In this document: one piece after another, positions 8,274-17,698 of the stretch | Position numbering within the stretch: position 1 is the stretch's first letter | Layout of the letters: every line of letters begins with the position of its first letter | Sequence record: SRR31156797_5325 | Reading direction: 5' to 3' (one strand) | DNA: 64,000 nucleotides | Translations under genes and position numbers: made by a program | The notes under the pieces: model-generated | What the model was told of the DNA's origin: nothing | Seen by the model: the letters and a program-made list of their open reading frames with translations, nothing else | The model's database searches: none

Positions 8274-10673
8274 TTAACCTCTGTTTATATTCACTTGATG
8301 CTTGGTGTTGTCTTTACCATGAGAGACCCACAGACGCTTGGTTTGATACCCCGGAGCACTCACCTGAACATCGTAGTTCCCCGCCGGCAACATCATTCCA
8401 GGCTCATAACGTGGCTTGATGTTCATTACTCTGATCGTCGCCTGTTTAGCGTTAGTTAACACCTCAAATGGCATATCTTTCAGCTGACCGGTTTTGCTAA
8501 TGGCTTGCTTTTGCTCTTCAAATCCTTTGCGCATTTCAGCCGAAGCTAACGCTTTAGGTGGATTCAGTTTAGCCATCACATGCTTATCTAACTCACCAAT
8601 TGAATGCTCTAACGTATTCTTAAATAACTGGGTAATCATCATGTTTTGATCGAGCTTAGCGCCGACGGGTTGCACTATCGGTTGAGTATGTAGCACCCAT
8701 TTGAGCGCAATAGAGCCGACGGGAGAGACCGTTTCATCAAACTTATCTAAGAAGTACGATGTGGTTGATTTCTCCTCGGTAAATTTTGAGCTTCCAACCA
8801 GAAGAGGAACCGCAAATACCGCAGCAATAAGTAGGGCTGATAACACAGGGCCAATGTACTTCTCTGCTGGATGTTGCTGCTCAGAAAAGTCTTTATCGTA
8901 GTCAATTAACGCCCAGAACTTAAATGGCAATTTCACCACTGTAAGCAGTACTAGCAGCAAAGAGAGCGACATCGAAATCGGTGGAACAATAATTGAACGC
9001 AGCGCCGATTTACCATTTTCAGCTAATGGTGCACCATCTTCAAACTGAGAGCGAGCCGATTCAATATAACGAAGCCAGTACTCTGTCTCGCGCTGGATAT
9101 TAACCTTGATAACTTTGTCATGGAACTGACGGTTGTTCCAATCAGCCATCATTGGCTTCACATAGTTACGCTCCCCCATTTTCGCCAGAATACGTTCCTG
9201 AATCTGAGGATGTCTTTGGAACTGACGCCAAGAAAGGTTCGGTTTTAGATCTAAACCTCGTTGGACCATTTCCACTTTCCACTGGCGTTTGGTCTCTTCT
9301 CTTACTCGACTTCTCACCGCCTGTTTAAACTTGGTGATTTGTGCAACCTGCCAGTTTGACGGAAGCTTGATACCTTTACTGGCAACGCGCTTACGCACTT
9401 TGCTTGCGGTCGTTGGGTGTGAACGGAAAGTTTGGATTCGGTCTATCCCCATTGGGTAGCCAGTTTCCTTTTGAAATTTATCTTTCCACAACACCAGAAT
9501 GCGAGGGCGATATTCCGCTACATCATCGGTGTAAACCATGCGAATATTTTGTTCGCCTCCTTGGCCTGTCACCAGCTCTAAACCAGCAACCACAGCCGAA
9601 AGCCCAAGGCTCCAAGCGGTATCAGACAAGGTTGTGGTTCCTTTGGTTCTGCCCACTTCACGAACCAACCAGTAATCCATTTCCTTGTATGGTAAACCGG
9701 CGTTCTTTAACGTTTTAACATATCTTTTCTCAACGTCGGTAATACAACGATTCAAACGCTCTTGTCTGTTTTTCTTGCCACCGTAGCGATCAATACATTT
9801 GTTTCTCTTTTCAAAATGATTGAAGATTTTTGGTGCAATTTTTTGTGCTCTAGCTTCCGCTCGAGCCATATAGGATTTTTCAGCGTTTTTATAGTCTTTC
9901 CAACCTTGAGAAATCTGCGTTTCGACGTCTTCCCATGCTTTGTTTGCTCTTGATGAAGCACTGTTCATCGAAGCGTTATAACGATCAACACCAGTCATGT
10001 ATTGCTTATAAGAGTCCGCAATTTGAACCCGCATTTTCTTATAATCATTAAAATAATCATCAAACTGCGAGTTCGCTTTGTTCTCAATATAGCGACTTAA
10101 GATATCGCGCTTTTTAGACTCGACATGCTGAATGAACTCATCATTGGCATACACAAGCCCGCCCATCATCGCAAGAAACGTCATTTCACTCGGAGAAGAA
10201 GCATAATCAGACTGATACGGAATCCCTTTAATTTGAACCGCGTTAGCAGCCAAACTGGAGCGCAGCACGGAGGCAAAAAAGGCTTCTTGCCGCTGCTGTG
10301 AAGTCGACGGTTCAACCAACCATTTGTCGATCAGTAGTTTCTGCCCGAAGAACACCGTAGGCCAAACAAGAATGGCCACCAAAATAAAGCTACCAATGGC
10401 TCTTGGTGCGGTGCTCACCAACTTACCTTTAAGCAGTAAATCGGCAATCAACAGTGTGACGCCCAAACCGGAAATTGAGCGTCCAAATAACTCAATCAAG
10501 TGGAGTGTTTGATCATCAACATTCGCGCCACCAGCCACTTCAACTAACTTGGCATTGAACACCATCTCTGGAACAAGATAGACAAGAGACAACACAAACA
10601 AGGTAATGGCAAACCATTTCGGTTTTGGCCGAGTCGCTATCGAAGTAGCGGTTTTTTTATTGCTTTCTGACAT
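8274..10673 (-). CDS. Large polytopic membrane protein with a long basic soluble domain and a C-terminal PEGA-like beta domain; function unknown
   Basis: 799 aa; hydrophobic segments near the N-terminus and at about aa 560-630; C-terminal IRVMNIKPRYEPGMMLPAGNYDVQVSAPGYQTKRLWV resembles PEGA/carboxypeptidase-regulatory-like domains; last gene of the operon. Confidence 0.7.
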   Translation of the reverse strand: MSESNKKTATSIATRPKPKWFAITLFVLSLVYLVPEMVFNAKLVEVAGGANVDDQTLHLIELFGRSISGLGVTLLIADLLLKGKLVSTAPRAIGSFILVAILVWPTVFFGQKLLIDKWLVEPSTSQQRQEAFFASVLRSSLAANAVQIKGIPYQSDYASSPSEMTFLAMMGGLVYANDEFIQHVESKKRDILSRYIENKANSQFDDYFNDYKKMRVQIADSYKQYMTGVDRYNASMNSASSRANKAWEDVETQISQGWKDYKNAEKSYMARAEARAQKIAPKIFNHFEKRNKCIDRYGGKKNRQERLNRCITDVEKRYVKTLKNAGLPYKEMDYWLVREVGRTKGTTTLSDTAWSLGLSAVVAGLELVTGQGGEQNIRMVYTDDVAEYRPRILVLWKDKFQKETGYPMGIDRIQTFRSHPTTASKVRKRVASKGIKLPSNWQVAQITKFKQAVRSRVREETKRQWKVEMVQRGLDLKPNLSWRQFQRHPQIQERILAKMGERNYVKPMMADWNNRQFHDKVIKVNIQRETEYWLRYIESARSQFEDGAPLAENGKSALRSIIVPPISMSLSLLLVLLTVVKLPFKFWALIDYDKDFSEQQHPAEKYIGPVLSALLIAAVFAVPLLVGSSKFTEEKSTTSYFLDKFDETVSPVGSIALKWVLHTQPIVQPVGAKLDQNMMITQLFKNTLEHSIGELDKHVMAKLNPPKALASAEMRKGFEEQKQAISKTGQLKDMPFEVLTNAKQATIRVMNIKPRYEPGMMLPAGNYDVQVSAPGYQTKRLWVSHGKDNTKHQVNINRG

Positions 10674-10683
10674 TATTAAATAC

Positions 10684-17048: not shown

Positions 17049-17059
17049 CTTTTAAAACC

Positions 17060-17698
17060 TTAAACCATCTGACTTTTCAGGAAACCCACTAAAAGAAGGA
17101 CGAAACCTCCTGTCCAAATGAGCTTTTTCTGCAAACTCTTACGACGAAGTGCTGCGGCCTTTTCAGCCTCTTCAGCACGTTGCTTTTCGATGCGGGCTTG
17201 CTCTTGGCGCTCTTTCTCTTGTTGTTCCAGAACACTTTTACGCTGATAGAAAGCCTCTTCTGAACTACGAAGTTTAGAGAAGGTTTGTTTAATGTCTTTT
17301 GCTTGCAACTGGGTACTTAGCCGAATTTTTTCCAATTCATCGGCAATAGAGGAGTCAAGATGATATGAGTTGGTAATCGAGGAGAGTTTTTCAATATTCT
17401 TAAAATTAGCATCGAACAAAGATGATGCTTTACGCTCTGCGTCAACCTGCTGTTTTGAAACCTGATTAACGAGGGATTCTGACAACATCGATCCATGGTT
17501 ATCAATGTATTGATTGATTTTCGCCACATCGGCTTTCAATGTATCAATACGTTTCTGAATCTCTTTCTCTACATCTGTGATTTGTTGGCCTTTCTGTTTC
17601 ACTCCTTGTGCGGCGTTAGCACACTCATCATGGAGTGGCAAAAAGGCATGTTTGAATTCTTCGATAGACCCGAAGTGGTTTAAGCCATTTTCTTGCAT
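17060..17698 (-). CDS. Coiled-coil protein with a C-terminal transmembrane anchor; first gene of the FtsK/WXG100 operon
   Basis: 212 aa; heptad and charged-helix content; ends KKLIWTGGFVLLLVGFLKSQMV; AGGA RBS. Confidence 0.7.
   Translation of the reverse strand: MQENGLNHFGSIEEFKHAFLPLHDECANAAQGVKQKGQQITDVEKEIQKRIDTLKADVAKINQYIDNHGSMLSESLVNQVSKQQVDAERKASSLFDANFKNIEKLSSITNSYHLDSSIADELEKIRLSTQLQAKDIKQTFSKLRSSEEAFYQRKSVLEQQEKERQEQARIEKQRAEEAEKAAALRRKSLQKKLIWTGGFVLLLVGFLKSQMV

Follow-up and report, generated by a model that had tools for sequence, protein, structure and literature searches.

A stand-alone, mobile type VII secretion-like ATPase operon with an accessory lipoprotein and membrane-protein module in Vibrio

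Secretion systems of type VII (T7SS) are regarded as a trait of Gram-positive bacteria and mycobacteria, and the T7SS subtypes c-j treated in the accessible text of Garrett et al. 2024 (PMC11217815) are those of Gram-positives only. A compact relative is widespread in Gram-negative and other phyla and has so far been the material of footnotes and side remarks. Here we analysed a stretch of 64,000 nucleotides (nt) from sequence record SRR31156797_5325 (one strand, 5' to 3'; called the window below), which carries an operon of eight genes, g1 to g8 in the direction of reading, and compared it with the described systems. Its products are a tail-anchored protein (g1), an ATPase (g2), the helical proteins g3 to g6, a lipoprotein (g7) and a membrane protein (g8).

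The closest described operons are known from a few papers. Footnote 6 of Table 1 in Zhang et al. 2012 (PMC3482391, Biol Direct 7:18) refers to 'mobile versions of T7SS', and the accessible text describes a YueA-like ATPase of a distinct kind that has three HerA/FtsK domains of which the middle one alone is active. Bell et al. 2024 (PMC11090510) place the module in Type III-A CoCoNuT loci; in the part of that paper available, the ATPase has an N-terminal coiled coil and no transmembrane (TM) helices and is accompanied by two WXG100 proteins, one of them without the WxG motif. The same text suggests defensive protein secretion, takes the absent TM domains to imply a mechanism other than that of EssC, and cites Anantharaman et al. 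2012 for the stand-alone, mobile nature of the module. Uchiyama et al. 2016 (PMC4978471), again in the portion accessible, regard WxG plus FtsK as a minimal T7SS set, with HP0062 and HP0066 of Helicobacter pylori given by name. HP0062 is described in the available text of a review (PMC3397514) as an ESAT-6-like hairpin whose dimer forms a four-helix bundle, with a WRD sequence in the bend and an FtsK/SpoIIIE gene nearby. No published function was found for the HP0062/HP0066 locus. A first-pass annotation of the window, made from its letters alone, had treated the layout of the operon as unknown among characterised Vibrio systems. That novelty has to be given up, since the combination of WXG100 proteins and a three-domain, TM-less EssC-like ATPase is known, from what could be seen of PMC3482391 and PMC11090510, as a mobile T7SS-like module in Gram-negatives. 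Within our partial coverage of the literature, no paper was found that characterises such a system experimentally or in Vibrio.

Comparison of the Vibrio locus with these operons gives good support to the view that it belongs, as a stand-alone operon, to the mobile T7SS-like group with WXG100 proteins and an EssC-like ATPase. Equally well supported is that the region is a horizontally acquired cassette of two modules, A (g1-g6) and B (g7-g8), and that g1-g6 are kin to the T7SS core; that the cassette serves in export, and any adjustment of it to a diderm envelope, is what we infer. Shared with the operons in the accessible literature are the three-domain EssC-like ATPase with only its central domain active, the N-terminal coiled coil which replaces FHA domains and TM helices, a neighbouring pair of WXG100-type genes of which one is without WxG (here g3 and g4, directly after the ATPase gene), the occurrence in gamma-proteobacteria, and the mobile and stand-alone character. 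The published operons, as far as the texts seen go, carry, behind the WXG100 genes, a fusion of a coiled coil to a restriction endonuclease as well as a DNA-mimic-like protein, whereas here a nuclease-less g5 and a g6 with a WxDxA motif follow. The tail-anchored partner, the g6-type carrier domain and the GDPD-lipoprotein/799-residue add-on of the Vibrionaceae were not seen in the accessible parts of Zhang et al. 2012 and Bell et al. 2024, and may be covered in the supplements of the latter or in Anantharaman et al. 2012 (the Ter paper).

The characterised T7SSb (EssC, EsxA, LXG toxins) and T7SSa or ESX (EccC, EsxA/EsxB) share with the cassette a tandem P-loop FtsK/SpoIIIE ATPase, which gives the best fold match, pairing hairpins of WXG100 type (here predicted), and, in relatives of the cassette, helical N-terminal carriers on nuclease toxins. 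In contrast to them, the ATPase of the cassette has neither TM helices nor FHA domains nor the DUF domain, and its activity motifs lie in the middle domain alone, while EssC of T7SSb keeps motifs in D1 and D2 according to the accessible text of PMC11090510. The WxG motif of T7SSa and T7SSb is replaced by the variants YxGxGA and WxD, and the cassette resides in a diderm, whose envelope includes an outer membrane.

The ATPase and its helical partners

The g2 protein matches the Pfam family FtsK_SpoIIIE (PF01580) with E 5e-27. Among the NCBIfam models, EccCa (115 bits), EssC (105 bits) and EccCb (87 bits) score above FtsK (33 bits), all of them under their (equivalog) cut-offs. An AlphaFold2 model was built from a 13-member family alignment, with a predicted local distance difference test (pLDDT) of 84.6 and a predicted template modelling score (pTM) of 0.71. 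It shows a long soluble N-terminal helix (residues 6-75) followed by alpha/beta domains of P-loop type at residues 103-330, 357-640 and 692-935. The top Foldseek match of this model is the cytoplasmic region of T. curvata EccC (4nh0, E 1.6e-29, about 966 aligned columns), which covers the three domains; EccC D2-D3 and EssC follow, and the FtsK motor is matched over one domain only (E 3e-14). The NCBIfam ranking and the Foldseek comparison thus bear out a multi-domain FtsK/SpoIIIE ATPase, as first annotated, and define it as one of EccC/EssC type with tandem P-loop domains, not as an FtsK DNA pump. The middle domain alone keeps both Walker A (AMTGAGKS, residues 391-398) and Walker B (MLIIDE, 494-499). 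In the third domain FIVINE is present and GK[ST] is missing; the first domain lacks both Walker motifs.

No TM helix is predicted in g2, and its only hydrophobic stretch (residues 152-170) is modelled as part of the first alpha/beta domain. The ATPase therefore departs from those of the T7SS, which are bound to the membrane by their own TM helices, and a separate protein, g1, is encoded upstream of it. The sole hydrophobic segment of g1 comprises residues 194-212 at the extreme C-terminus, after a long coiled coil, and for this reason g1 is read as a tail-anchored membrane protein. Proteins with a C-terminal hydrophobic tail are listed at the g1 position in 14 of 15 Vibrionaceae loci; at the fifteenth (L026) another open reading frame (ORF) had been picked automatically, and the g1 relative was recovered by tblastn. 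An analogous family of tail-anchored coiled coils, c4 (111-158 amino acids, aa), is present in 16 of the 24 metagenome loci that extend at least 3.5 kb downstream, either immediately 5' of the ATPase gene or 3' of g6. No Pfam or NCBIfam family was reached by g1 at cut-off. We propose that g1 acts as the membrane tether of the ATPase. The g1 protein of the window is 58% identical to that of V. plantisponsor (L001:9339-9986), compared with 91-97% for g2-g8; it evolves much faster than the other products, with the exception of its C-terminal RRKSLQKKL...TM tail.

The 89- and 87-aa products g3 and g4 had been annotated as WXG100 hairpins, a claim that stands for the families and for the predicted pairing of the two proteins, while the copies in the window remain below threshold. 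Among the 33 members of the g4 family, 26 match Pfam WXG100 (PF06013) at E<=0.1, the best with 1.9e-7; the window copy matches TIGR03930 with E 0.005 only (cut-off 44.85 bits). The g4 family profile finds among the PDB sequences 4lws_A (7.7e-5), the ESAT-6-like MAB_3112 (4e-4), S. aureus EsxA (1.8e-3) and several EsxB chains, and its Y-E-G-x-A-A-x-x-F motif is aligned on the W-x-G-x-A motif of the EsxA, EsxB and ESAT-6-like chains. In g4 itself the motif reads W36..Y43-x-G45-x-G47-A48. This link emerged once metagenome relatives joined the profile; profiles of 13 Vibrionaceae sequences only, made for g4 and g6, found no WXG100 chain among the PDB sequences.

For the g3 family, the profile of 33 sequences has HP0062 of H. 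pylori as its top match among the PDB sequences (3fx7, E 1.5e-4; 2gts, E 2.7e-4). The family carries a W-x-D turn, of which the tryptophan is lost in the Vibrio copy. The canonical W-x-G turn is thus found in none of these proteins: g4 has YxGxGA, the g3 family WxD and g6 W41-x-D43-x-A45. Prediction of a complex of g3 and g4, run without alignments, gave an interaction prediction score from aligned errors (ipSAE) of 0.88 (0.86-0.89 in three runs), the best control reaching 0.02. The 114-120 predicted contacts extend over both helices in each of the chains, with at least 96% agreement over the three runs, and the pLDDT of the partners is at least 86. For comparison, 51 solved complexes out of 78 attain this ipSAE mark, as do 2 mismatched pairs out of 108. 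A heterodimer in the form of a four-helix bundle is predicted for g3 and g4, and it is as a prediction that the cassette has the four-helix-bundle dimer of small proteins seen in the T7SS; HP0062, by comparison, is reported to be a homodimer.

The g5 protein has alanines conserved at heptad spacing and no catalytic motif. It finds only generic coiled coils among the PDB sequences and no Pfam or NCBIfam family. With a copy in 13 of 13 Vibrionaceae loci and in 23 of 24 metagenome loci, g5 is, judged from its sequence conservation, a core component of the module. In g6, which is present in 23 of the 24 metagenome loci, W41-x-D43 is invariant and A45 is invariant within the Vibrionaceae only; its matches among the PDB sequences are likewise generic coiled coils, with no specific one. 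A g4-like N-terminus in g5 was considered as BLAST clustering had joined the two families, and was rejected (BLASTP E 0.11, hhalign 2.5%); the link had run via toxin fusions.

Conservation and mobility of the cassette

Full-length orthologues of the ATPase were found in 17 of 301 sampled Vibrionaceae genomes, together with one distant relative. Thirteen of the 17 loci were fetched; G008, G019 and G043 were left out, and the V. plantisponsor locus is that of G001. All 13 keep the order of a tail-anchored protein, the ATPase, two ORFs of about 90 aa, one of about 340 aa and one of about 148 aa. At these loci tblastn recovered g5 in 13, g6 in 11, g4 in 10 and g3 in 5 cases, the rest being recognised by position and alignment. 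The flanking genes vary from one locus to another.

A scan of metagenome contigs with a family alignment gave 80 loci, 42 of them with a close ATPase (E<1e-150). In the 24 loci counted, g3 is present in 21, g4 in 21, g5 in 23 and g6 in 23; all four occur together in 19, in constant order. The survey of co-conservation that had been suggested as a check therefore came out positive, as the order g2-g3-g4-g5-g6 is kept in all 13 Vibrionaceae loci and in 19 of 24 metagenome loci, which is beyond chance. Named relatives of the ATPase come from Photobacterium, Enterovibrio, Pseudoalteromonas, Idiomarina, Colwellia, a Kentrum symbiont, Roseimicrobium, metagenome-assembled genomes (MAGs) of Chloroflexi, and Deinococcus. 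The ATPase of metagenome locus L100 is 99.8% identical to a cluster that contains a Phormidium MAG protein. A plasmid of Deinococcus actinosclerus carries the same six genes adjoining IS701 and IS4 transposases.

The assignment of the host to Vibrio was upheld: its nearest relatives on record, Vibrio plantisponsor LMG 24470 and a Vibrio sp. MAG, share the malT context and have ATPases 91% and 97% identical to g2. The other products are 93-98% identical in these two records, g1 of V. plantisponsor excepted. In the window, the operon is bordered on one side by malT (5529-8237, plus strand; TPR_MalT and GerE domains) and on the other by a DUF2810 gene (18090-18446), which is followed by a MarR gene. 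Among 61 sampled genomes of the genus, the spacing between malT and the DUF2810 gene is 50-137 nt in 10 and 1.6-7.9 kb in 5 (G324, G141, G231, G282, G268, G205, G254, G311, G147, G308, G316, G265, G313, G292 and G210), while it amounts to 9.9 kb in the window and in G001. Because the spacing differs so among genomes, the cassette, including its 391-nt leader, is regarded as an insertion at a variable site. The occurrence in 17 of 301 genomes, the differing flanks, the empty site in 10 genomes and the Deinococcus plasmid copy agree with a mobile and stand-alone element. No direct or inverted repeats of at least 9 nt were found at the cassette flanks, and phage records gave one weak partial match to the ATPase and no sign of a phage origin. 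The site itself (8238-18089) is a variable hotspot, where five genomes have other inserts, of 1.6, 3.1, 4.8, 7.7 and 7.9 kb; a search with the ATPase found no match in three of them, and in the other two the inserts are too short for the operon.

Carrier-domain fusions, the lipoprotein module and possible functions

In relatives of the cassette, domains of g4 and g6 type are found fused to toxin domains. Loci L069, L071, L073/L074 (L074 being a second copy of L073), L077, L099 and L100 encode extra proteins that share 37-64% identity with the g4-type protein of the same locus over their first ~93 residues. At the C-terminus they have AHH nucleases (E 8e-15 and 2e-11), a GIY-YIG domain (2e-6), GNAT, or a part of no known family; C-terminal parts of 387 and 342 aa gave no Pfam family at a meaningful E. 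In addition, L099:14234-15292 encodes a complete g6 domain (hhalign 99.2%, E 2e-19) joined to Endonuclease_NS_2 (E 4e-25). The AHH and GGH catalytic motifs of the fusions are intact. By analogy, a domain of g4 or g6 type joined to a nuclease has the architecture of the polymorphic toxins exported by T7SS. The Vibrio copy contains no such toxin fusion. In the cyanobacterium-like loci, the fusions of g4 type lie at L073:14419-16339, L069:7159-7875, L077:8074-8874 and L100:9643-10671.

A plasmid of Helicobacter sp. NHP19-012 (L153, 3917-8319) combines an HP0062-like gene, an HNH endonuclease, an SMI1/KNR4 gene and an FtsK-like ATPase. Its HP0062-like protein (89 aa) has a true W-G-D turn and aligns with the g3 family (hhalign 90.8%), and its ATPase is distant (28% identity over 47% of the query). 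SMI1/KNR4 is a member of the SUKH superfamily of immunity proteins (accessible text of PMC3113570). In this epsilon-proteobacterium, the plasmid locus represents a version of the system with toxin and immunity genes. It has a 340-aa HNH endonuclease, an extra protein of 77 aa, an FtsK/SpoIIIE protein of 823 aa and an adjoining MazF-type toxin-antitoxin pair. The HNH protein was tried as a relative of g4, g5 or g6 and was rejected by hhalign.

Taking the ATPase, the hairpins and the fusions together, we lean, with some reserve, towards a machine in which the g1-tethered ATPase handles bundles of g3 and g4, with g5 and g6, at the inner membrane. The ATPase would oligomerise like motors of the FtsK family and would be attached to the inner membrane through its own long N-terminal helix and the coiled coil of g1, so that g1 and the long helix might form a split version of the TM-plus-stalk part of EssC and EccC. 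It may recognise the folded helical bundles of g3-g4, and probably also those of g5 and g6, and spend ATP on their transfer into the inner membrane or across it. Since g4- and g6-type domains carry nuclease or acetyltransferase domains elsewhere, the machine could be a carrier-domain-based system of effector delivery, in which case the cargo in Vibrio would be the helical proteins themselves and the periplasm-facing g7-g8 module a possible downstream acceptor or effector. The Vibrio copy provides a tractable host in which one can ask whether a TM-less EssC-like ATPase with a tail-anchored partner moves folded helical proteins, whether the role is antibacterial, antiviral or other, and what the carrier domains (WXG100-like and WxDxA) deliver.

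A number of observations weigh against the proposed export machine. Neither g3 nor g4 of the window reached a WXG100 cut-off. As a control, PF06013 scored up to 24.6 bits in ORFs of 500-700 aa and matched in 13 of 14 control genomes; weak WXG100 matches of single sequences are therefore untrustworthy, and the assignment rests on the family profiles and not on the window copy. The high score of the g3-g4 prediction may come from a resemblance of the pair to WXG100 dimers of solved structure, and this resemblance is the very question under debate. Scans with Pfam and NCBIfam (E<=0.1) found no EccB, EccD, EccE, MycP, EsaA, EssA or EssB family in the eight proteins, as already noted in the first-pass annotation, and the membrane part of the conserved module amounts to a single TM helix in each g1, which falls well short of the characterised T7SS. 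At the five cyanobacterium-like loci with toxin fusions (and at L074), the fusion genes lie 4-55 nt from their downstream neighbour (the next fusion gene or g6), which leaves no room for an immunity gene; such tight packing is unusual for exported antibacterial toxins and fits deployment inside the cell better. The g7-g8 module stands outside all 24 metagenome loci, that is, no non-Vibrionaceae locus has it, and it can stand alone, as g8 occurs without the ATPase in 2 genomes. As a side observation, helical hairpins like those of chemoreceptors are a possible identity of the ORFs of 500-700 aa that match PF06013 (in G001, G070 and further Vibrionaceae genomes).

Within the g7-g8 module, the g7 protein has a lipobox (LAGC, residues 18-21) and a GDPD domain (Pfam, E 5.8e-15) with HRG, PENS and HHD motifs of the catalytic type; its C-terminal half matches no known family. 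The g8 protein has about five hydrophobic segments, read as about three N-terminal and two central TM helices, and its AlphaFold2 model (pLDDT 81.5, pTM 0.56) adds large helical and mixed soluble regions. Foldseek found nothing in the PDB for this model at E<=1e-3, and in particular no match to EccB/D/E, MycP, EssA/EssB/EsaA, a missing fold match being no proof. VIA-align wide gave Z<=7.3, within the background of helical models, and its only specific match is a C-terminal transthyretin-like beta-sandwich (Z 6.9, root-mean-square deviation 2.3, 65 aligned residues). An Atlas search returned only the cluster of g8 itself.

The first-pass annotation had taken the lipoprotein and the 799-aa protein as possible parts of the machine, which the distribution contradicts. 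Full-length g8 orthologues occur in 13 of the 301 Vibrionaceae genomes, 11 of them ATPase-positive. The g8 match is absent from 6 of the 17 ATPase-positive genomes, and the three of these that were fetched (L029-L031) end after g6, without g7 and g8. Because the module is limited to the Vibrionaceae and is found without the ATPase, g7-g8 is accessory and not core, linked to module A only within this family. It is a plausible alternative, though one we do not favour, that two independent units share one transcript, with g7-g8 as an envelope pair for lipid turnover or maintenance that has no role with g1-g6. In line with this, g7-g8 occurs without the ATPase in G183 (locus L148), adjoining an integrase-like gene, a short lipoprotein precedes g8 in G136, and distant g8-like proteins follow other lipoproteins. 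Against independence, g8 is present in 11 of the 17 ATPase-positive genomes, g7-g8 lies directly 3' of g6 in all 10 fetched loci with both g8 and the ATPase (10 of the 13 fetched, with ATPase identities of 47-78%), the gaps are of only 4 and 10 nt, and RNA-library contigs bridge g8 and g7, which is weak evidence as DNA carry-over is possible. The distant g8 paralogues (L150:5377-7233 and L151:4704-6827, of 618 and 707 aa) are about 25-30% identical over parts, and that of L151 directly follows a putative lipoprotein of 207 aa. This points to a wider family in the Vibrionaceae of a lipoprotein with a g8-like membrane protein.

The main rival to export is defence inside the cell, which we rate as rather unlikely. 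Here the ATPase and its helical partners would sense or process an invading phage or plasmid, and effectors would act inside the cell or at the membrane, in the manner of abortive infection; the effectors would be the nuclease and acetyltransferase fusions in other lineages and possibly the g7-g8 membrane/phospholipid module in the Vibrionaceae. The cyanobacterium-like nuclease and GNAT fusions, which keep their catalytic motifs without an adjacent immunity gene, are in favour of such a role. So is the presence of this module within Type III-A CoCoNuT restriction loci and next to TerY-P triads, for which a defensive role is suggested in the accessible parts of PMC11090510 and PMC4978471. The cassette is also accessory and patchy and lies in a variable hotspot. 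In PADLOC-DB 2.0, the ATPase domain of g2 matches SspH (97 bits) and mad8 (72 bits); these are generic ATPase-domain matches that do not make the cassette a known anti-phage system, and the other seven proteins gave nothing better than E 1.8e-4, to coiled-coil models only.

The flanks were scanned over 141 of 229 candidate ORFs (100-700 aa, within 4-5 kb of the module); left out, among others, were L025, L031 and L036, which are near-duplicates of L024, L029/L030 and L035, and the duplicates L074, L084 and L109, and two in-module ORFs were added (L099:15417-15731 and L100:7332-7841). A few genes of conflict type were found (DO-GTPase2, nSTAND3, AbiEii-like, restriction-modification), each in 1-2 of the 141 ORFs, but no family recurs, the commonest being present in 4 of the 141. 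Further points against defence are the conserved membrane tether and the WXG100-type carriers, which are hallmarks of export, and the Helicobacter plasmid, where the HNH nuclease is paired with a SUKH-type immunity gene as in exported polymorphic toxins. In addition, the lipoprotein signal of g7 would take it out of the cytoplasm by Sec/Lol, independently of the ATPase.

A more ambitious form of the export reading appears doubtful to us, namely module A as a minimal, self-sufficient diderm exporter in which the membrane part of EssC/EccC is split off as g1, and to which, in the Vibrionaceae, g7, at the outer membrane, and the periplasm-facing g8 have been recruited so as to carry or release the helical proteins beyond the inner membrane. 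If true, it would amount to a two-stage T7SS-like route across the Gram-negative envelope. That the ATPase is instead a DNA pump of the kind that serves conjugation or segregation (Streptomyces TraB, TcpA), with the helical proteins as accessories, is very improbable, for the single-domain structural matches to the FtsK motor and the TcpA coupling protein (E 3e-14 to 6e-11), the weak NCBIfam match to TraB (E 1e-4) and the copies on plasmids are set against far higher EccC/EssC scores across all three domains, a cassette without relaxase, replication or partition gene, and WXG100-type partners, which are not known from DNA pumps.

Layout and transcripts of the operon

The ORF list confirms eight co-oriented genes on the minus strand at 8274-17698, with gaps of 11, 3, -8, -1, 22, 4 and 10 nt, and the product descriptions first given for them hold on the evidence of hydrophobicity, Pfam, predicted models and motifs. 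Details of the features are presented in Table 1.

Table 1. Features of the cassette, with positions in the window
Feature	Position	Strand	Length	Description
g1	17060..17698	-	212 aa	Tail-anchored; cytoplasmic coiled coil and one C-terminal TM helix
g2	14172..17048	-	958 aa	Soluble EccC/EssC-like ATPase
g3	13899..14168	-	89 aa	HP0062-family helical hairpin ('WxD' type)
g4	13643..13906	-	87 aa	Divergent WXG100-type hairpin
g5	12624..13643	-	339 aa	Soluble alanine-heptad coiled coil
g6	12149..12601	-	150 aa	"WxDxA" helical protein
g7	10684..12144	-	486 aa	GDPD-family lipoprotein; accessory, Vibrionaceae-specific
g8	8274..10673	-	799 aa	Polytopic membrane protein; accessory
leader	17699..18089	-	391 nt	Non-coding, 5' of g1; part of the inserted cassette, presumed promoter region
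hairpin	8244..8268	no strand		9-bp stem, 7-nt loop; likely bidirectional terminator

The hairpin lies between the convergent stops of malT (8237) and g8 (8274). Read by eye, its arms (8244-8252 and 8260-8268) are flanked by an A-run and a T-run, and it is likely to be a bidirectional terminator; a scan for consensus terminators did not report it. The leader contains no minus-strand ORF of at least 60 aa, and the GC content over 17001-18000 is 0.40. One promoter-like site was seen in the leader (18049-18021), of a kind that is no less common in shuffled sequence.

RNA-library contigs of relatives from two studies (X12 and X13; X15) match scattered pieces of the operon with 90-97% identity at a depth of 3-7. 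One contig of 1276 nt spans g5-g4-g3-g2. Neither strand nor a single transcript can be read from these contigs and DNA carry-over is possible, so they were not counted as proof of expression. In library X15, a contig over the DUF2810 gene (window 18269-18600) has a depth of 640, compared with 2-8 over the operon, and the DUF2810 gene of the relative appears to be highly represented in that sample. Elsewhere in the window, positions 21000-24000 have a GC content of 0.33-0.41, compared with about 0.45 in the remainder, and contain two ORFs of 113 aa (the one that was scanned is a DUF3316 protein) and one of 189 aa with a Trans_reg_C domain of OmpR/ToxR type.

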